From the sequence record PZ379598.1: DNA of 40,118 nucleotides; one strand, written 5' to 3'. Position 1 is the first letter of the stretch, and every line of letters begins with the position of its first letter. Below are positions 1 through 40,118 of the stretch, piece after piece. Origin of the DNA: a phage. Under the pieces are notes generated by a model. That model was given only the letters and a program-made list of their open reading frames with translations. It made no database searches and was not told where the DNA came from. The position numbers and the translations under genes are program-made.

Positions 1-151
1 AGACCAATAGTCCCTGCCTATCGTCCTTCCCTAAGCCATAGCCACAACCTATCGTTGACCTGAAGTCTTGACCATCGGTCTAACCTTATGATATACTGGG
101 GTAGGGCCTTTGGTCTGGACTGAAAGATGGCCTATGGGGGACTTGAGGTTC
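1..151. repeat. Direct terminal repeat, copy at window start
   Basis: Bases 1-151 are identical to 39968-40118; T7-like genomes carry direct terminal repeats of this size. Confidence 0.9.
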
Positions 152-857: not shown

Positions 858-2624
858 CTAGTGGAACGTAACGTATGCCCCTAGTCCAAGCTCGTCGTCC
901 GTATCGTGAGTTACCCGGACCCCATTGTCCCAGAACTCAGTGTGGATGGACTCGAAGCCTTTCCGTGGGTTCTCCATCTGTTCCTCCAGCCACTCCTCAG
1001 TGACTTCACGTTCTCCTTTGTTGGCATCCTTAGCCATAGACTCAACGAAGAACTGTACACCGATAGCCAGCGCATCAAGTCGGTCATCGTGTGCCAAGGC
1101 TCCACGTTCACGAGAGATACGTGTCATCTGGTAGAAGAGAGAGTAGATAGGGTTACGAACACCATCCTTATCAGAGGCCGACTGGTAGTCTTGGACGATA
1201 GCAGCAGCGTTAACGATAAGTCGGTGAGACCCCATGATAGGCTCCAGAACGTCACAGATGCGGAGTTCTTTCTGACCCTTACTCTTCACTTCAGTTACAG
1301 CCGCAGGATGGATACGGGCCGCTACAGGCTTGAATAGCTCAAGGTACATACCATCACCGAAGTTACCCTCAATGACGTATTCGTTGACCTTCCACTTACG
1401 ACCAATCTTAGCCAAGGCTTCCAGCGTAGAGTCTTCATAACCACCACGCATACCACCAACTTCCATAGCGAAGATGTAGCCGTTGAGCTGGTACAGTACC
1501 GCATAACCAGTTTCATCCTTACCACGACCACTAGGGTCAATGACCAGAATCTTCTGGGTGTACGAGCTAAAGGCAGAGCCTACAGTCTGATACGTGTGGT
1601 ACGAGTCACCCATGAGTCCAACGTTAGGAACGTCCTCACGCTTGTTCTGAGGGTTCGGCAACCATTGGTAGACCATTGGGCTGGACGCTGGGTCCAAGTC
1701 GGCTACGATAAGGTCACGGAGCTTCAGAGGGTACTTCTCGGCATCACTCAGGTTCGGGTTAAGCATGAACTGTAGAGCGAAGCCAGCTTTACCGTAGGAC
1801 AGCTCACGTTCCTTCAGGTCCGTATCATCGAAGCGTACTTCATCAGTCGGACGCCAGTAGAAGGACTCAGGGTCCTCTTCCAGCTCTGCCTGAAGCATAG
1901 GAGCCAGACGGTCGCCGTAAGACTGCCAGTCCTTCCTGTCGCGTGGATAACGAGCGGGCCAGATAGTAGTGGTGTACCCACGACCTTCCAGCTCACGGTA
2001 CAGGGTCATCTCGTTCTGAGGAGTACCCAGATAGATGATCGTACCTCCCGGCTTCAGGATAGCGTCGAACTCTTTCACAAGCTCTGATAGACGGTCTCGT
2101 GCAGCCTGAGTCGCTGAGTTGTTCGGAACCTCCACGTCATCGGCAATCAGGATGTCAGCACGACTACCAGTCAACTGACCAGTGATACCAACGGACTTAA
2201 CCGAAGGTGAGTGGTCTGGCTTGGCAGGTCCCACGTCGAAGCTGATAACCGCATCTCGCTGCCCCTGTTTAGGTTTGAGTTCCTGAAGCTGAGGCATGAG
2301 GTCGATGATTCGCTTGATGAAGATGGAGTTCGCATCGGCTCGTTCCTTTGAGGCCGACACAATCATGAACTTCAAGTCTGGGTTATTCCATAGCTTCCAG
2401 ACCACAAAGCCACAGGTCAAAAACGACTTGCCAATACCACGGAACGCCTGAAGGATGAAGCGGCGATTATCCCCAGCAGCCAGCTTCTTACACATATCTA
2501 TCTGGCAGCGGGTTGGAACCGGAAGACTTAGTGCTTTCCAGAGAACGAAGATGAAGAACACGAAGTCGTCCCTCATCCTTTGGACCATTTCTGCCTGTCT
2601 TTCAGCGGGTGTTTTCTTAGACAT
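858..2624 (-). CDS. gp19: Terminase large subunit (T7 gp19-like)
   Basis: 588 aa; near-colinear identity with recalled T7 gp19 ([58 protein letters not shown]). Confidence 0.95.
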
Positions 2625-3054
2625 ATAGTCCCTCCAGCATTAGGTCCCGGACAGCGATAGACTCCTCTAAAGTGGGACGTGTTGTTCGCATATAGGCATT
2701 CCCGCGTTTAACCTGAATCCTATAACCATTCTGGTGACGGGTAACGCACTTCACTCCTGTCTTAGAGTCATAATGGCTACCAGTATTCCAAGTGTTTTCA
2801 GCGGCAGTAACGAGCCGTAAGTTACTTAAGGTATTATTGCTAGGGTTCCTGTAGATGTGGTCTATTTGCATACCATGCGGTATAGGACCATTGGTTAGTT
2901 CCCATATCACACGATGGGCCCGCTTACTGCCTAGACTTCGTGTCTGTACTATCCAATATCCCATCCGACTTAATGTTCCCACAGGCTTTCCAGTCCTAAC
3001 GGAGACCAGACCGGATGGACTAGCCGGGTCCACTTTGTAGTAATCACTTAACAC
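2617..3054 (-). CDS. HNH homing endonuclease
   Basis: 145 aa with an HNH core ([41 protein letters not shown]); overlaps the spanin 3' end and the terminase start. Confidence 0.8.
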
Positions 3055-3496
3055 CTTGGAGCCTCCTTATTGTGTCCTGAAGCGCCTTCTCCTTAAGGTC
3101 TGCCTCCTGAGTTAATCGGATAAGACTTTTAGAAGTTTCTGGGTGTAGTTCGACTCTACCATTAGGGAAGCATCTACTGACATCTGACTCGGTGAGACCT
3201 GAGGTGTTGACTCGGACGCGCAGCCGCTTGTTATCGCGGTTAAGGTCAGCAATAATCCTATCAGTAGAGCCTTCCAGCGCGGACATCTTGTCTTGCCACT
3301 CGGCTGACACTTTGTTGATTTCACCTTGGACAGCAGCCCGTTGATTCTCTCGTGCCTCAAGTTTCGTGATGTACTCATTGTTTACCTTCGCCTCCCACTT
3401 ATTGTCTGCCACCCAGTAGCCAGAACAGAACAGGAGTCCTGCAACCAGCCACGGGATTGCTTTACGTAAAAGTTCGAGCATAGTTGCCCTCCTCAT
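3044..3496 (-). CDS. gp18.5: i-spanin (Rz-like, T7 gp18.5-like)
   Basis: 150 aa; N-terminal membrane anchor then coiled-coil; matches recalled T7 gp18.5 (LRKLIPW..AG.LF, EGSTDRII.DL..DNKRLRVRV, LQDTIR.LQ). Confidence 0.9.
   Translation of the reverse strand: MRRATMLELLRKAIPWLVAGLLFCSGYWVADNKWEAKVNNEYITKLEARENQRAAVQGEINKVSAEWQDKMSALEGSTDRIIADLNRDNKRLRVRVNTSGLTESDVSRCFPNGRVELHPETSKSLIRLTQEADLKEKALQDTIRRLQGVK
3112..3378 (-). CDS. gp18.7: o-spanin (Rz1-like) embedded in the +1 frame of the i-spanin gene
   Basis: Embedded ORF with a hydrophobic stretch followed by a lipobox-like TSGC and a Pro/Ser-rich tail; embedded Rz1 architecture is typical for T7. The true start is probably downstream of the ORF-track start. 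Confidence 0.65.
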   Translation of the reverse strand: MSTSRNLRHERINGLLSKVKSTKCQPSGKTRCPRWKALLIGLLLTLTAITSGCASESTPQVSPSQMSVDASLMVESNYTQKLLKVLSD

Positions 3497-3540
3497 TTCT
3501 CAGAATCCACGTAGCGTCTCCGCCCGTAGTGTGTGTTAAC

Positions 3541-3580
3541 CATAAAGGCCACTACATATAGTAATGACCTTGAGTCTAAC
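3541..3580 (-). promoter_or_regulatory. Putative RNase III processing hairpin (R18.5 position)
   Basis: One of three copies of a conserved element (minus strand ...GACTCAAGGTCATTACTATATGTAGTGGCCTTTATG); resembles the recalled T7 R1.1 hairpin. It sits between small terminase and the spanin gene. Confidence 0.6.
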
Positions 3581-3582
3581 AC

Positions 3583-3846
3583 TTACTGTACACCATACCC
3601 GGTGTCGTTATCCTCAGTAGCTGAGAGCACCTTATCGTACTCCCTGTTCAAAGCCTCCATATCAGCGAGCGTCTTCTCGTCAACAGACACCTTGCTTAGC
3701 ACGAAGTTGTGACGAGCCAGTAGCTTCTCAATGGCGTTGTAAAGCTGAGGTGAACGCTTAGAGTCATCCCGCAGGTCTTGCAGCATGAGTCTAGCACGTT
3801 CAGTATCCAGCATCAAGAGGAACTTCTCTAAGTCCATCTGCGTCAT
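3583..3846 (-). CDS. gp18: Terminase small subunit (T7 gp18-like)
   Basis: 87 aa; matches recalled T7 gp18 (F..MLDT, RSPQLYNAI.KLL.RH.F). Confidence 0.85.
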   Translation of the reverse strand: MTQMDLEKFLLMLDTERARLMLQDLRDDSKRSPQLYNAIEKLLARHNFVLSKVSVDEKTLADMEALNREYDKVLSATEDNDTGYGVQ

Positions 3847-4037
3847 GTTTTACCACCTCCTTTAATCGTTTTGTAGACTAGCACACCAATCTGGACAACG
3901 GTGTACGCGATAGCTGCAACGTAGAACCATTCGTTCAGTGTAAGTCCGAAGAAGAACCGACTGGCACCATCAGCCGCAGCGGTCCCGACGATAGGAGAGG
4001 CTTTAAGGACCTCATTCTTGAAGTCTAACTCAATCAT
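3843..4037 (-). CDS. gp17.5: Holin (T7 gp17.5-like, class II)
   Basis: 64 aa; near-identical core to recalled T7 gp17.5 (KA.PIVGT..AD...R.FFGL.LNEWFYVAAIAYTVVQIG). Confidence 0.9.
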   Translation of the reverse strand: MIELDFKNEVLKASPIVGTAAADGASRFFFGLTLNEWFYVAAIAYTVVQIGVLVYKTIKGGGKT

Positions 4038-4147
4038 AAAACCTCCAGTTTAAAGCGGGTCGTCCGTGACCCAAAGTTGTTACATACGTTGGTTAGCGTG
4101 TAGTTAGTCTCTACCCCCACCAACTTAATGGCAAAATGGTTTGTTTA

Positions 4148-4375
4148 TTACTTCTGTTCAAGAGCAGAAAGTCTGGCTTCGATTCTTTCCAGTTTTCTTC
4201 TCTGATAAGCGGCTTCAGCAAAGAAAATTCCGTCAGGCCGAACACCCCACTCCTCACCCTCTTCGTGAATAACCACCTCGGTGTATACAGGTTCTTCCGT
4301 AGTAGTGACATTACCCTCCTCGTCAGTGTGTTCAACGATTTCATTGTGCGAAAATACCGTACCAGTATTACTCAC
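4148..4375 (-). CDS. Hypothetical acidic protein (75 aa) downstream of the tailspike
   Basis: ORF begins with GTG overlapping the tailspike stop (GTGA overlap), has an acidic N-terminal half and a helical C-terminus (AEAAYQRRKLERIEARLSALEQK). No T7 counterpart between genes 17 and 17.5. Confidence 0.5.
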   Translation of the reverse strand: MSNTGTVFSHNEIVEHTDEEGNVTTTEEPVYTEVVIHEEGEEWGVRPDGIFFAEAAYQRRKLERIEARLSALEQK

Positions 4376-6903
4376 TTAGACATAACAGCTAATGCTTCCT
4401 GCATACGCTTAATAGTACGCCGCATCAACGCAGCCTCTAATATCAGTACTTCCTCGTAACGAATACCGTAGCGGGAACCTGCTGGTGTAATCAGTTTACG
4501 AGAGCCATTGGCATCTTCCTCGTATACATCATCCCAACTGTCGAAGCACAGGAAGCCATAGCTATGTGCATCTATACCGTGACGTTCGAAGGCCTCCTTA
4601 GCTCGCTGAGCGATGATGCCGAAGTGCCATCTAGCTGAGTCTGCACCCTTCTCCTCAATTCGGTCCAAGTACTGAAACTGCACAAAGTCAACTTCAGACC
4701 AAGCATCCAGTAAAGCATCTGAGATATTAAGAGGCTCTGTTTTATCCCTAGCATCTGAGACAACAGTGAATGCTGATTGAGTAAAACCGCCAGACCATGC
4801 TCGACTTGCGGAACCTAATGCGTATGTATTAGTACTATCTGGGGTCATTGCATCAGAACCTAACTGCAAATAACCTGTGCTACTGGTAGGAAGACGCACG
4901 TTGCCGTTGGTGAGGGACACTGTCCGATAAATACCATCAGAAGTAAATAGTCGAACTTGAGAAGATGCACCACCACCTACAGCTAATGACACAGCACCAT
5001 CCCCAAGCATTCTGTACTTATCAGCAGAAGTAAGAACGCCTGAAGGGAGTGACATGGACTTAATCCGCCATTCGAACCTACCTGACATACTACCTATGTA
5101 CTGCCCTAAGGCAGGTGCGTGCACTACGTTACTATTACTAGTGCCGTCAATAGTAGCTGCACCGTCAATAGTACTAACAGAACTGAGAAGGTCGTTTCTC
5201 CTGCCAGGGTGTTTTACCTCTACGAAGTTACGGGTAGAGCCGGATTCGAAAGTAATAACACCTGTAGCACTGTAGCTAGGAAATACAGACGCATAGTTGT
5301 TATTAGCTGTACCTATAAAGCGTGCAATTGTAGCAGTCTGCCCTTGTCCTGAAGAGTTAGTACCATCACATCCTGACATAAGCACATTATTTATGACGTT
5401 ATCAGACCCTTCTACGGTAACGCCATGAGCCTGATTAGCATCAGAAGTTGAGTAATCTACGAGCACGTCTGAGATTAAGTTCGTATTTCCTTTGCCTGCA
5501 ACAACCGCTGCATACTTAGGGTTATTAGCCATCACCCCCTTTATAATGTTATTAGAAGGAGCTATTGGCCCTTCAGTGCCGTTGTAAGTTACATGCTGGC
5601 AATCTGCCCCTATAACATTACTGACTATGTTGTAACTGGCTGTACCTTTCAACTCTACTGCTCCGAACTGAGGGTAGTTCTTAGCAATAACGTTATCTAT
5701 GAGGGAGTTAACTGAGGAGTCAGCAAGTACGCATCCGGCTGCCTTATTAGTAGCATAGCCGGAATAGCCACCTCGAATGCCTTTAATCATAAGTCCATCA
5801 GGTGGCGCATCATTAGGGTATGCGATTAAACTGAAACCAGTACCTTTAACGTTTGAGAAGTTAACGTCACTTACAGTAACATCGCTTCCACCCGCAAGAG
5901 ATACCTGCTGTCCCTGAGTTGTATCAGTCGCCTTATTACTTTCTACCGTAATATTACTTAAGCGACCTGTACGTGGATTGTTAAATACTAAGTAGTTACC
6001 TGTACTGGAACGGTGACTTAGCACGCCACTACCCCTACCGTCTAAGTTACAGTAATTACTATTAATACCAGAACTAGAGAATACACCTTCTGATGCTACG
6101 ACAGCTTTTTGAGAATTTAGTGAAGCAGCTATATTCTCCGTACTATCTGTTACACCATCCCCTTTAGCACCCCAGCCTCGAACATCACCCTCATCACGCC
6201 ATCTTGCCATCTGCAATTCCGGGTAGAGTATTGCCCCTTCCGGGTTTGAAATCTGACTTCTTAAAGCAGCATCACCAACACTAACCCACGCACCTAATCC
6301 AATCCCACCGGAAGTTTCAGGAGTTGAACCAGCAGGAACGTTCTTTGGAAGCGTACCATCCCAGCGGTAATAATCACCATCCTCTTCCCATAGCAGGACC
6401 TCGCTCCATGTTGTAACGTTGTAGCCTTTCTCGAAGGAGCGACGGGTAATATAGCCAATTAGACCAGCTTCCCTGATACTCGCAGCGATTCGGCGTGCTT
6501 CGTCCTCGCTATCCTTAGCGTTGCCAGCAGAGCTACCAGCAGCATCGGCATATTCCTTCGCTAAGTCAACCGTTTGGTCTCGACCTTCTTCTGCAATATG
6601 GATAGCCTGAAGCTCTGAATTGGTCAGGTCACTAGCTGTCAACACTGAGCCATTCCTGAAATCTACCACTAAGTCAGTTCCAGTCTGACGGTGAATACGA
6701 ACTATGTCGAAACCTGATTGGTCAACCAACATCTCAATCATCGTTGGATTAAGGAATCGGTAATCTCGACCAACTTCCAGTACACGGTTCAGGGTAGGGT
6801 TAGAGCTATTCACCAGCGTAACAACAACAAACGTTCTGGCTAGGTAGTCGAACTCAATCCTGTACTGAGTGTTTCCTGAAGGGAATTGTGTAATCGTGGA
6901 CAT
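4372..6903 (-). CDS. gp17: Tail fibre / tailspike: gp17-like N-terminal adaptor, central beta-helix (putative polysaccharide depolymerase), C-terminal intramolecular chaperone (peptidase S74-like)
   Basis: N-terminal ~150 aa match recalled T7 gp17 (EYLAR.FVVVTL, DYRF, LVDF.NGS.L.A.DL). The central region has repetitive N..I.NV..G beta-helix-like segments. The C-terminus has SDARDK (Ser-x4-Lys) and HFGIIAQRAKE resembling S74 chaperone motifs. Confidence 0.85.
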   Translation of the reverse strand: MSTITQFPSGNTQYRIEFDYLARTFVVVTLVNSSNPTLNRVLEVGRDYRFLNPTMIEMLVDQSGFDIVRIHRQTGTDLVVDFRNGSVLTASDLTNSELQAIHIAEEGRDQTVDLAKEYADAAGSSAGNAKDSEDEARRIAASIREAGLIGYITRRSFEKGYNVTTWSEVLLWEEDGDYYRWDGTLPKNVPAGSTPETSGGIGLGAWVSVGDAALRSQISNPEGAILYPELQMARWRDEGDVRGWGAKGDGVTDSTENIAASLNSQKAVVASEGVFSSSGINSNYCNLDGRGSGVLSHRSSTGNYLVFNNPRTGRLSNITVESNKATDTTQGQQVSLAGGSDVTVSDVNFSNVKGTGFSLIAYPNDAPPDGLMIKGIRGGYSGYATNKAAGCVLADSSVNSLIDNVIAKNYPQFGAVELKGTASYNIVSNVIGADCQHVTYNGTEGPIAPSNNIIKGVMANNPKYAAVVAGKGNTNLISDVLVDYSTSDANQAHGVTVEGSDNVINNVLMSGCDGTNSSGQGQTATIARFIGTANNNYASVFPSYSATGVITFESGSTRNFVEVKHPGRRNDLLSSVSTIDGAATIDGTSNSNVVHAPALGQYIGSMSGRFEWRIKSMSLPSGVLTSADKYRMLGDGAVSLAVGGGASSQVRLFTSDGIYRTVSLTNGNVRLPTSSTGYLQLGSDAMTPDSTNTYALGSASRAWSGGFTQSAFTVVSDARDKTEPLNISDALLDAWSEVDFVQFQYLDRIEEKGADSARWHFGIIAQRAKEAFERHGIDAHSYGFLCFDSWDDVYEEDANGSRKLITPAGSRYGIRYEEVLILEAALMRRTIKRMQEALAVMSK

Positions 6904-6953
6904 TATGCCTCCTTTGTGATTTAAATGGAGACCTATGGTAGCGCCTCCAGTTT

Positions 6954-6971
6954 CCTATAGTGATAGTTTAG
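6954..6971 (-). promoter_or_regulatory. Phage RNAP promoter (phi17 analogue)
   Basis: Plus-strand CCTATAGTGATAGTTTAG; upstream of the tail fibre gene. Confidence 0.8.
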
Positions 6972-9900
6972 TCCTTGATGTGGATGCCTTGCTCCTCAAA
7001 CGTTCCAAGCAGCAGCTTCTGGGTAATGGGGTCGTTCGGAACCAGTTCACGTAACGTATTATACATCCCGGTCATGTAGTCACGCTCGTTGACACGAGTA
7101 TCAGCCTTGAGGTAGCCAGCCAAGTTGTAAGCCGAAGCGCCAACGTTAGCAGCATATCCGAAAGCTGGAACCTGCTCCAAGAAGTTACCAACAACATTCA
7201 TCACAGGGTCACTTGTAGCTGCACCATACGCGATGGCACGCTCAGGCTTCTCTGTAGGAGAACGAGGTAGGATAGACGAACGGAGCATCTTAGTGTCCTC
7301 ATATCCAGCGATGCCTCCCAGAATGTTAGCTACCCCAAGTGGGCCACCAAGATGTGAACTACGGGACAGGGCCGCATAGCCAATCATCGTTGGGTCCAGA
7401 GCTTGCTTAAGGTAGTCACGGTCTCGACCATCCTGCATAGCATAAGCCTTGACATGCGCCTGAGCCATGTAGTAGATACCAGCCAGACCCATAGACATCA
7501 CGGTCGACAGTGCAGCGTCAATCGCTCTGTTGTTCTTCGTGGCGTTATAGAAGGTTCGCATGGTTCTCCCATTGATAGACTTGATGACGAAGTTCTTAAA
7601 CTGAAGTACAGTCTTAGCGAGAGGACCATAAGCCTTGGCGTCCATGTTTGACAGCTTATGAGGCCGGAGTAACGTCTCGTCAGCGATGGTGTCACCCATA
7701 CGCCACAGGTCCATAGCCCTTGGGTCCTGACTGAACGCCTTCTTATCCTTGATGGTGTACTTCCCGTCTGGCCCACGAGTCACTGACTCACGGATTAGGG
7801 ACTTAATTCCACTCCACTGCTCGTCAGATATACCAGCGGTCTTCAGCCAGCGGTCATCGAACTTACGCTTACTACCAGTCAGGCTATGCTCCACGATGTC
7901 AGACAGGAAGCCTTGACGTCCAGCATCTAACAGGTAGTTGGTCGTACCGTTGAGGACTTTAGTGAACGGAGAGCGTACTGCAAGTTCACCAGTGTAATAC
8001 TTAGCAGTCCCCAGAGCTGTAGCTGTACCACGACTAAGGTCACTGTAAGATCGCAGACGGTCGATAACATCCTGTTTAGACGGACGGATTGAGTCGTCCA
8101 ATTCTTTACCGAAGATAACATTATGCAGGTCCTTAATCTCCGAGGCCCCAACCTTCTTGTTACGGAAGGCTAGGTCACGGAAAATTGGGACTCCATGAAG
8201 CATTGCACGAACGTTACCACGAGCCAGCATACCACCAATCTCCGTTAAGTTCTGAACACCCATGTAGGCATTCTTAGCGAAGAACGATAGGTCTGTCATT
8301 GTGCGCATCACTGTAGCGAAGGCTGCATCATCAGCACCATCACGTCGAGCACGACCAGTGAGAATCTTCAAGGTGTCACGTAAGGTAGATACCTCACCTT
8401 TCAACTTACCGTCATCCCCAGCCTTGTTCATCATGGTCTCAACCAAGTCCTTCATGTCCTTCGTGGTCTTTCCTGTACCAGCCATGATAGCGATGTCCCC
8501 ATTAATTCTACGGTTGTACGCCGGAACAATCTTGTCCATGTCCCACTCACGCAGATTGTTGACACTGAACGTCTGACCGTTAGGTAGGACGATTGACATA
8601 TCGCTATCGAACAGGTTACGAGCCTCAAGGAAGCTGTTGTTCTCCAGACCCACCAGACCATTGATGTTCTCTTCCATTACGGATGAACGCTCGAACTGCT
8701 CGGTGTGAGAGATACCATAAGCCTTATCGTTGGCGTACTTATCGACCGCAGCCGCAAGTCCTTCTGGAGTCAACGTAGGGTCAGCCTCTAAGAGTGCCTC
8801 GTCCACACGTTTCTTGACCTCAGGTCGAGACGCATAGCTGGTCAACCATGACTTCTTGATGGCCTCCTGTAGTGCCTCTGGACTTCCAAGCTCCTTGATG
8901 TACAGCTCCTTCATCTGTTTGCTATACACATGCGGGACGTAGGTTCCCTTGAAGTGGCTACCCGGAAAGATAGACTGAGCGTCTGGACGACCAAACATCG
9001 CTGGGTTCTCCATCATCTCACGCTTGGCGTCGAACTGGTTCTTCAGTAGGTCATAGACTTTCATTTCTCCCGGAGTCAGTTCAGCCTTCAGGTTTCCGCT
9101 ACCGTCTTCGATAGCCATAGACACACGCTGGTAGATGTCCTGACGGAATGCGCCAGAGTCTCGCCAGAATGCAGTCTGGAAGTACGGGTCCTTTAGTGCC
9201 TCAGTAACCGCATCGTCGATGTCGTTGTAGAACCGATGGTCCACAGAACGAAGTCTCTCGAACACGTCTGACGCAGTTGTCCCGATTTTACCTGAGGCCC
9301 CAGACTGCATACCAGTAGGTGAACGCACTAAGTCAGCAGCTACTCCACGAATCTCAGGGTTCTCAGACCGAAGCAGCTTCAGGCCAATCTCGGTAAGTCC
9401 ACCAAGGTTCACACCAGCAGCGGCACGTTCCGGCTCAATCACTTCGTCAAAGACTTGACGTGTCTTAGGGTTCAGAGGGTTCTCACCAATCAGGATTGAA
9501 CCGTCTTCCAGTCGTACACTTCCCGGCTCATTCGGAACGTCAGCGAACTTAACGCCTTGATGACTAAAGGTCTGCTCACCTTCCTGAATAGGTAGACGAG
9601 ATAGGTCCTGACCATCAACGTTACGAGCAGTCTCACGAGCTTCCAGACGTGTAGCTGGACCAGCAAACTCATTAGTGTTGCGGCCTAAGGCTCTACCTAG
9701 TCCATCAGCGATAGCAGTCATACCGCCACCGAAGAGAGCACCACCAAGGATAGCTTCAGCCACATGAGCATCACCACCAGCCACTGAGGTACGTGCCATC
9801 TCAGACACACCAGCCAGTGCTCCAGATTGAGCCGCCACTGTGAACATCTTGTTTACCAGCTTACCGCCCTTACCAACCTGTCCAGCAATAGGAACGTAGG

Positions 9901-39967: not shown

Positions 39968-40118
39968 AGACCAATAGTCCCTGCCTATCGTCCTTCCCTA
40001 AGCCATAGCCACAACCTATCGTTGACCTGAAGTCTTGACCATCGGTCTAACCTTATGATATACTGGGGTAGGGCCTTTGGTCTGGACTGAAAGATGGCCT
40101 ATGGGGGACTTGAGGTTC
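39968..40118. repeat. Direct terminal repeat, copy at window end
   Basis: Identical to bases 1-151; the repeat may extend beyond the window edge. Confidence 0.9.

Follow-up and report, generated by a model that had tools for sequence, protein, structure and literature searches.

A chimeric tailspike with a predicted K5 heparosan lyase body in a K1F-like phage

The window (the whole stretch of DNA that was analysed) is a complete K1F-like genome of 40,118 bp with 151-bp terminal repeats, and its tailspike gene very probably codes for the only receptor-binding tailspike of this Kayfunavirus, a K1F-like relative of T7, with specificity for the K5 capsule of E. coli. The gene is a chimera in which codons 1–253 of K1F gene 17 are joined to codons 41–632 of K1-5-type kflA. 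Since the body of the protein is assigned as a K5 heparosan lyase, its receptor can be named, namely the capsule of E. coli K5. Both the enzyme activity and the K5 specificity are predicted from near-identical characterised homologues. The tailspike is of an ordinary, known kind, near-identical proteins having already been sequenced, named and structurally solved.

The gene is flanked by gene 16 and the holin gene, as is gene 17 in K1F, and the calculated mass of the tailspike precursor is 90.1 kDa. The gene and the motif preceding it are as follows.

4372..6903, minus strand: tailspike gene in the T7 gene 17 position, a single open reading frame with an ATG start and 843 codons plus TGA (open reading frame list)
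6950..6967, minus strand: phage-RNA-polymerase promoter-like motif ACTATCACTATAGGAAAC, 46 nt before the ATG of the spike gene and immediately behind the stop codon of gene 16

The promoter-like motif has 10 matches in the window at three or fewer mismatches, all on the minus strand, compared with 0.05 expected by chance. By analogy with T7-like phages, the copy at 6950..6967 is probably the late promoter of the spike gene. A scan for sigma-70 promoters and terminators around the gene returned nothing above chance; the promoter that probably matters here belongs to the phage-polymerase class. No near copy of the tailspike gene was found in complete E. coli genomes; the matches there were partial, at ~65% identity, and annotated 'tail fiber domain-containing protein', indicating that the genomes of that collection do not carry the tailspike as a prophage gene.

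A preliminary description had divided the spike into an adaptor, a depolymerase-like body and an S74 chaperone, and all three modules are present in this order. The matches to Phage_T7_tail, Tail_spike_N and Peptidase_S74 all scored above the curated Pfam cut-offs. The body, which determines the receptor assignment, has the following coordinates.

4759..6144, minus strand: K5 heparosan lyase body, aa 254–715, predicted, like KflA, to form a beta-helix that leads into a stalk of triple beta-helix
5584..5655, minus strand: stretch with E417, K419 and Y440, candidate catalytic residues of the lyase, mapped from KflA with an offset of +211

Residues 254–716 of the spike share 95.7% amino-acid identity with the crystal structure of 'K5 lyase' (PDB 2x3h), with 20 differences and no insertions or deletions, in agreement with the beta-helix depolymerase-like body proposed earlier. 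Such matches, like those to the Pfam domains, lie far outside the range of chance. Similarly, the spike is 94.9% identical to residues 41–632 of the 'K5 lyase' gp46 of phage K1-5, again with no insertions or deletions, and, from end to end, 96.4% identical to a 'Tail spike protein' (PDB 9vvr), with 30 amino-acid differences. The 9vvr entry contains 18 chains, a number compatible with six trimers; a literature search found no publication describing it. The tail spike profile phrog_14895 scored 1293.8 bits over aa 209–843. At the nucleotide level, the gene is 99.5% identical to those of the Kayfunavirus phages vB_EcoP-101120B2, PM129-139 and others, and the spike gene of the 101120B2 lineage was published by its authors under the name K5 lyase.

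KflA is described as a trimeric beta-helical capsule depolymerase in which a triple-stranded beta-helix follows the main helix (PMC8822698, PMC3594737). Its substrate is K5 heparosan, which is cleaved by beta-elimination, and recombinant K5 depolymerase degrades the K5 capsule. The idea of a polysaccharide-degrading body is supported but has to be narrowed: the body would not be a generic depolymerase but specifically a K5 heparosan lyase acting by beta-elimination, rather than a sialidase-type hydrolase. A single-sequence AlphaFold2 model of the 843-aa spike gave a mean pLDDT of 33 and a pTM of 0.24, too low for the model to be used; the predicted beta-helical, trimeric fold can be considered safe on the strength of ~96% identity to 2x3h and 9vvr together with the published descriptions of KflA. 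A spike of this type would cut the K5 polymer by beta-elimination, allowing the virion to advance through the capsule until it reaches the outer membrane.

The catalytic residues of KflA are reportedly E206, K208 and Y229 (gp46 numbering), as identified in the work of Thompson et al. in 2010 on the KflA structure. They map to E417, K419 and Y440 of the spike, where the residue types agree (E, K and Y). All three candidates are unchanged, being absent from the lists of differences between the spike and 9vvr, 2x3h, K1-5 and 101120B2.

Amino-acid changes might nonetheless have shifted the target of the lyase away from the classical K5 capsule to a different one. In favor of this idea, the nearest relative differs at 11 codons, 10 of them with an amino-acid change, and all lie in the body or the chaperone domain; position 490 exists in three states (N, R and S) in close relatives; and point mutations built up in the spike gene of sister phages during host-range breeding. 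We consider such retargeting very improbable, because ~95% identity to KflA and gp46 has been kept with zero insertions or deletions, and because the capsule specificity of tailspikes normally changes by replacement of the whole body, as in the K1F/K5 swap in this very gene. Given the 20 differences from the KflA body and five residues (G379, N490, S518, V576 and S781) that occur in none of the relatives compared, a shifted specificity stays formally conceivable. The same five residues and the excess of nonsynonymous codon differences hint at ongoing positive selection that retunes the substrate groove or the host range, a proposal that we put forward only tentatively and consider rather doubtful. 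The gene is 99.5% identical to that of its nearest relative, compared with ~95% for the flanks, a contrast that points to a cassette in recent spread which has begun to diversify.

Alternatively, the spike could bind heparosan or heparan-type glycans without cleaving them, as an adhesin like the tail fibre protein of ES17 (ES17-TFP). ES17-TFP, which was modelled on 2x3h, resembles K5 lyase in structure and bound heparan sulfate, while depolymerase activity was not detected; the 20 exchanges that separate the spike from the crystallised body of KflA could be read in the same way. However, ES17-TFP is a distant relative (E 4e-12 to 2x3h), whereas the spike is 95–96% identical to enzymes with measured activity and retains the candidate catalytic residues, so that a purely adhesive role appears very unlikely. 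An endosialidase or other hydrolase-type body like that of the K1F spike, from the type phage of the genus, can be dismissed as practically negligible despite the K1F-type N-terminal 253 aa and downstream relic, because the propeller domains are missing: End_beta_propel (PF12217), End_beta_barrel and End_tail_spike (PF12219) were found in K1F gp17 but not in the spike by the same Pfam scan, End_N_terminal appeared in the spike only as a sub-threshold 20-residue fragment (aa 246–265), and the two proteins show no similarity outside the N-terminus and the chaperone domain.

The predicted lyase body is preceded by an N-terminal module derived from K1F, within which two domains were identified.

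6145..6903, minus strand: K1F-derived N-terminal module, aa 1–253, consisting of a tail adaptor, a helical stretch, Tail_spike_N and a short neck
6559..6876, minus strand: T7 gp17-type tail-attachment domain (Phage_T7_tail, PF03906), aa 10–115 (Pfam, E 2e-15)
6271..6438, minus strand: Tail_spike_N (PF18668), aa 156–211 (Pfam, E 3e-19)

Residues 1–253 are 94% identical to the product of codons 1–253 of K1F gene 17, corresponding to 96.3% nucleotide identity in a blastn match that ends at 6145. The Phage_T7_tail domain scored 57.2 bits against a curated cut-off of 25.2, and chains of T7 gp17 (PDB 7boz, 8dsp and 8e4g) matched spike aa 6–116. The preliminary description had limited the resemblance to T7 gp17 to the first ~150 aa. 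This is roughly right for the detectable similarity (aa 6–116 with 7boz), but the module conserved in the genus, as in K1F gene 17, reaches aa 253, and Tail_spike_N had been overlooked. Tail_spike_N is also present in K1F gp17, in the tailspikes of CBA120 and in the K5 lyase of the N4-like phage UE-S5b; PDB entries 4oj5, 5w6h, 6nw9 and 9occ matched the spike at aa ~150–225. Both the PF03906 domain and the location of the gene, with gene 16 on one side and the holin gene on the other, identify the N-terminus as a T7 gp17-type adaptor. Judged from these similarities, spike trimers would attach to the tail through the gp17-type domain (aa ~1–150), and Tail_spike_N and the neck, up to aa 253, would connect this adaptor to the lyase body. 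A branched two-spike system (G7C or KP32 type) built on Tail_spike_N was rejected because no further spike gene bearing a docking peptide lies beside the tailspike gene.

The C-terminus of the spike contains a Peptidase_S74 domain with the following features.

4375..4758, minus strand: C-terminal intramolecular chaperone and predicted self-cleaving domain (Peptidase_S74), aa 716–843, 14.7 kDa (Pfam)
4756..4758, minus strand: S716, at which the SDARDK motif starts
4741..4743, minus strand: K721, in Ser-x4-Lys spacing with S716
4606..4620, minus strand: GIIAQ (within HFGIIAQ), aa 762–766 (motif search)

Peptidase_S74 (PF13884) was detected at aa 716–776 (E 5e-14; 52.7 bits against a cut-off of 22). 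The match covers profile positions 1–57 of 58, and position 1 falls on S716. PDB entries 3gud, 3gw6, 4uw8, 6eu4 and 7y5s matched this region, and the S74-domain structures of endoNF, GA-1 gp12 and T5 pb1 matched aa 682–838. S716 and K721 align column for column with S911 and K916 of endoNF, residues that are indispensable for auto-cleavage of that protein. The S74-like module with its SDARDK dyad and GIIAQ motif, as recognised earlier from the sequence alone, was therefore borne out by both the Pfam match and the endoNF alignment. Processing is also known from the K5 depolymerase that is 95% identical to the spike, which has a precursor of 67 kDa and runs at 52 kDa 'after proteolysis'. By homology, autoproteolysis of the spike would convert the 90.1-kDa precursor into fragments of 75.4 and 14.7 kDa. 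The last 128 residues would act as an intramolecular chaperone that nucleates trimerisation of the preceding triple beta-helix, and would then remove themselves at Ser716 through the Ser716/Lys721 dyad, leaving a mature spike of ~75 kDa.

In endoNF, R897 (R1250 in T5 pb1) is the folding-sensor arginine of the preceding triple beta-helix. In an ungapped alignment, R701 of the spike is one position off endoNF R897, lying 15 residues before the dyad serine as compared with 14 residues in endoNF and T5. The side of the serine on which the scissile bond lies is disputed: the GenBank annotation of K1F and the T5 pb1 structure place the serine on the released domain, whereas the chain in 2x3h ends with the serine.

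The chimeric structure of the gene is delimited by two joints.

6140..6150, minus strand: left recombination joint, at codons T252-D253-S254-T255 in a GDGxTDxT motif
4361..4371, minus strand: right recombination joint, with K1-5-type sequence to 4368 (4 nt past the lyase stop) and K1F gene 17 sequence from 4361

Codons 252–843 of the spike correspond to K1-5 gp46 from codon 41 onward. At the left joint, a three-way DNA alignment showed that K1F and K1-5 have the 11-nt word ACTGATGATAC in common; by blastn, K1F homology stops at 6145 and K1-5 gp46 homology begins at 6150. At the right joint, blastn boundaries and alignment revealed no notable homology between the parents, and this joint is identical in 7 of 7 K5-lyase Kayfunaviruses compared.

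Directly downstream of the tailspike gene lies the following relic.

4148..4375, minus strand: what is left of a K1F-type endosialidase gene, namely its 3' end with the final ~72 codons of the chaperone domain

In the window, the relic is an open frame of 75 codons, of which 71 of 72 aa are identical to aa 993–1064 of K1F gp17, and 94% nucleotide identity to K1F continues from the relic into the holin gene. Its GTG overlaps the TGA of the spike gene in a different frame and is immediately preceded by a TAA. No Pfam match was found in the relic frame, and between the spike and holin genes it is the only open reading frame, with no other large unassigned one nearby. The relic is frameshifted in 101120B2 and has been lost through three different deletions, in 22664UKE3-2/SHAK7854, in Midid and in IME177/ZG49; among the K5-lyase Kayfunaviruses compared, the frame is intact in this window alone.

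This frame could be a working gene, translated by coupling at the GTG into a small trans-acting helper of spike trimerisation. The overlap with the spike TGA, the intact frame and its near identity to the coiled coil that ends the chaperone domain of K1F all fit this idea. However, the frame is disrupted in the nearest relative and was deleted three independent times in viable K5-lyase Kayfunavirus isolates, it has no upstream ribosome-binding site of its own, and the spike already has a complete chaperone domain. A function for the 75-aa product therefore seems highly improbable, and we rejected it in view of the decay in sister phages. Instead, the relic suggests a record of a past K1-to-K5 specificity swap. 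Judging from the exact joints and the decay of the endosialidase relic, a single event would have replaced the K1 sialidase of a K1F-type phage by a K5 lyase.

The tailspike most likely sets the host range of the phage, predicted to be E. coli with a K5 capsule, and is thus relevant to the choice and engineering of therapeutic phages and as a source of a heparosan-degrading enzyme. With near-identical genes already present in GenBank and the PDB, the modest added value of our analysis is evolutionary: the same chimeric module recurs in N4-like phages, amounting to a tidy, datable exchange of a receptor module between three phage families.

Compared with known systems, the spike is closest to those of 9vvr, vB_EcoP-101120B2, PM129-139, AN17P1 and AN24P4, which are likewise 843 aa long with the same architecture; it differs from that of 101120B2 at 10 aa, and its Kayfunavirus relatives have the same chimeric joints. 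K1F gp17 (endoNF) resembles the spike in its N-terminal 253 aa (94% identical, including Phage_T7_tail and Tail_spike_N), its genome position, the genes downstream, the type of chaperone and the Ser/Lys dyad. In contrast, the catalytic parts are unrelated, since K1F has a sialidase with a beta-propeller and the spike a predicted lyase with a beta-helix, and the chaperone domains share only ~31% identity. Like the S74 domains of endoNF, GA-1 gp12 and T5 pb1, that of the spike combines the Pfam match with the Ser-x4-Lys spacing, an HFG(V/I)IAQ motif and a C-terminal helix.

The body and chaperone are 95–96% identical to KflA of coliphage K5A (2x3h) and to gp46 of K1-5, an SP6-like Vectrevirus, and the substrate and beta-elimination chemistry of these proteins are those predicted for the spike. 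KflA and gp46 have a 40-residue N-terminus that begins with MAKLTKP and docks on a separate adaptor, gp37; in the spike, the 253-aa K1F gp17 module replaces this peptide, and the spike is thus predicted to bind the tail directly. Furthermore, K1-5 has a second spike, an endosialidase, whereas the phage of the window has one spike gene. The K5 lyase of the N4-like Gamaleyavirus phages UE-S5b, UE-M6, UE-S5a and UE-M3 is 91% identical to the spike from aa 156 to the end. This match spans the K1F-derived aa 205–253, indicating the same chimeric lineage of the module, and the UE-S5b protein and the spike both contain Tail_spike_N and Peptidase_S74. However, the first ~100 aa of the UE-phage protein differ and lack the T7 gp17 domain, and its gene resides in a 73-kb Schitoviridae genome, adjoining an endosialidase gene.

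The tailspike gene is a single minus-strand ORF of 843 codons with an ATG start, which fills 4372..6903 of the window. Three Pfam domains were found in its product (hereafter the spike), each above the curated cut-off:

aa 10-115, Phage_T7_tail
aa 156-211, Tail_spike_N (PF18668)
aa 716-776, Peptidase_S74

A PDB sequence search matched aa 6-116 to T7 gp17 structures, and the SDARDK and GIIAQ motifs start at aa 716 and aa 762, respectively. These results bear out the gp17 adaptor and the S74-like C-terminal module proposed in a preliminary description, which had put the gp17-like N-terminus at ~150 aa; the adaptor stands, but the conserved N-terminal module was underestimated and Tail_spike_N overlooked. 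The depolymerase-like body proposed there can be narrowed to a K5 lyase. The full-length spike is 96.4% identical, with 30 differences, to an 843-aa 'Tail spike protein' (PDB 9vvr, 18 chains), and aa 254-716 are 95.7% identical to 'K5 lyase' (PDB 2x3h; KflA of coliphage K5A). K1-5 gp46, annotated as K5 lyase, is 94.9% identical to the spike from residue 41 to its end. Sequence comparison supports the spike as a putative K5 heparosan lyase tailspike carrying a K1F-type adaptor and a Peptidase_S74 chaperone domain.

The catalytic residues of KflA were reportedly placed at E206, K208 and Y229 by Thompson et al. in 2010. We take E417, K419 and Y440 (gp46 offset +211) to be the candidate catalytic residues of the spike; all three are invariant across the compared sequences. 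KflA has been described as a trimeric beta-helical lyase whose main helix is followed by a triple-stranded beta-helix (PMC8822698, PMC3594737). Single-sequence structure prediction of the spike reached a pLDDT of 33 and gained nothing over the solved structures. Sixteen phage-collection records covered at least 80% of the spike gene, 14 of them, all Kayfunavirus, at full length. The top nucleotide identity in this collection, 99.5%, was shared by vB_EcoP-101120B2 (hereafter 101120B2), 101120B1-2 and PM129-139. Searching complete E. coli genomes for the gene returned only partial matches at ~65% identity. Separately, a partial tandem duplication gives the lyase gene of phage ZG49 (409..3649) two copies of window aa 447-683, and the annotation splits this gene into two 'tail spike protein' ORFs (686 and 386 aa). 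Either a genuine rearrangement or an assembly artefact could account for the duplication.

The upstream neighbor of the spike gene is gene 16 (1295 aa). Downstream lie a T7-family holin, gene 18, an Rz-like spanin, an HNH endonuclease and the large terminase, and the minus strand carries all long ORFs of the window. Positions 1..151 are identical to 39968..40118; either a direct terminal repeat, as in a complete linear T7-like genome, or an assembly overlap would account for this. Kayfunavirus genomes share 95-97% identity with the window backbone. Together, the end repeat, the minus-strand ORFs and this backbone point to a complete K1F-like T7-type genome in reverse orientation, with the spike ORF in the gene 17 position. 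Additional features are as follows:

2617..3054, minus strand, HNH endonuclease gene (Pfam HNH_3, E 1e-18)
4148..4375, minus strand, 75-codon ORF (the relic), 71/72 aa identical to K1F gp17 aa 993-1064
741, 6950, 14655, 19442, 20430, 23249, 31652, 32628, 34290 and 37611, minus strand, ACTATCACTATAGG sites (motif count)

The 10 occurrences of ACTATCACTATAGG on the minus (coding) strand compare with 0.05 expected by chance, and one copy (6950..6967) lies immediately upstream of the spike gene. These sites are presumably promoters of the phage RNA polymerase. Scanning around the spike gene for sigma-70-type sites showed no enrichment. The HNH gene is squeezed between the spanin and large terminase genes, overlapping each of them. 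In 101120B2, to which the window aligns poorly over part of this region, an annotated HNH homing endonuclease occupies the matching place; K1F, ZG49 and Mt1B1_P3 lack the gene.

The boundaries of the joints in the spike gene were set by blastn of the window against K1F and K1-5. Positions 7100..6145 (spike codons 1-253) match codons 1-253 of K1F gene 17 at 96.3% identity, and 6150..4368 (codons 252-843, the stop and 4 nt) are 95.4% identical to K1-5 gp46 from codon 41. Beyond them, K1F sequence resumes at 94.2% identity in 4361..3700, first with the 3'-terminal 214 nt of gene 17 and then with the holin gene and gene 18. At the left joint, which falls in a GDGxTDDT motif, K1F and K1-5 have the 11-nt word ACTGATGATAC in common; at the right joint, alignment of these two parental sequences revealed no homology between them. 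Since K1F gp17 carries Phage_T7_tail and Tail_spike_N at matching positions, the whole 253-aa N-terminal module is native to the genus, the import comprising only the body and chaperone domain. The 40-residue N-terminus of gp46 (MAKLTKP...), which docks to the adaptor gp37, is missing from the imported piece. Each of the seven compared K5-lyase Kayfunaviruses has the identical right joint, pointing to a single origin.

Just 3' of the spike gene, the relic is what remains of the 3' end of a K1F-type endosialidase gene and corresponds to the last part of the chaperone domain. Its GTG overlaps the spike TGA in a different frame and is immediately preceded by a TAA. The relic is intact in the window, carries two frameshifts in 101120B2 (where it is annotated 'tail fiber protein'), and has been lost by three distinct deletions, in 22664UKE3-2/SHAK7854, Midid and IME177/ZG49, indicating a dispensable gene fragment. 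Full-length genes with this 3' end occur in endosialidase phages, including K1F, vB_EcoP_F and Mt1B1_P3. The K1 capsule is the target of the K1F endosialidase, and the host range of Mt1B1_P3 follows K1-capsulated strains. Set against these full-length counterparts, the relic suggests that a K1-specific ancestor was converted to K5. In the relic-holin intergenic region (~4095..4125, minus strand), a ~25-nt segment (GGGGTAGATGTTAGAAGGTT...) present in K1F, 22664UKE3-2 and SHAK7854 is missing from the window and 101120B2.

The module also occurs outside this genus. In the N4-like Gamaleyavirus UE-S5b group, the K5 lyase is 91% identical to the spike from aa 156 on; in UE-S5b itself it is a 784-aa protein (3064..5418) in a 73-kb genome, adjoining an endosialidase gene. 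This lyase contains the K1F-derived stretch (spike aa 205-253), with a sequence switch within Tail_spike_N, indicating that the chimeric module is present in three phage families and has moved between them. Between the spike gene (4372..6114, codons 263-801) and 101120B2 (1018..3549), 11 codons differ, 10 of them non-synonymously and one synonymously; all lie within aa 263-801, with no codon difference in the N-terminal 253 aa. Only 12 of the 112 mismatches over 4.7 kb aligned to 101120B2 lie inside the gene, so that the flanks are ~95% identical versus 99.5% for the gene. G379, N490, S518, V576 and S781 are absent from every compared relative, and close relatives have N, R or S at position 490. 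The pattern fits a recently shared cassette that may be diversifying now, in agreement with the point mutations reported to accumulate in the K5 lyase gene during host-range breeding of sister phages.

Spike aa 682-838 match the chaperone domains of the K1F endosialidase endoNF (3gw6), GA-1 gp12 (3gud), T5 pb1 (4uw8) and two further spikes, with which the spike shares the HFGIIAQ motif and a C-terminal helix. Spike S716/K721 align with endoNF S911/K916, a dyad indispensable for self-cleavage, and R701 is one position off the endoNF folding-sensor arginine R897 in an ungapped alignment. Sources disagree over the side of the serine on which the cut falls: it belongs to the released fragment according to the K1F record and in the T5 structure, but chain 2x3h terminates with it. 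The calculated mass of the precursor is 90.1 kDa, which would divide into 75.4 kDa (aa 1-715) and 14.7 kDa (aa 716-843). Recombinant K5 depolymerase runs at 52 kDa 'after proteolysis', with a listed precursor of 67 kDa (K1-5 gp46 and KflA), and homology with this enzyme supports the predicted self-cleavage of the spike.

Our additions are small: the recombination joints, the decaying relic and the surplus of amino-acid changes. The spike is already known by sequence, structure and name, 'K5 lyase' being the term used for its gene by the authors of the 101120B2-group phages.
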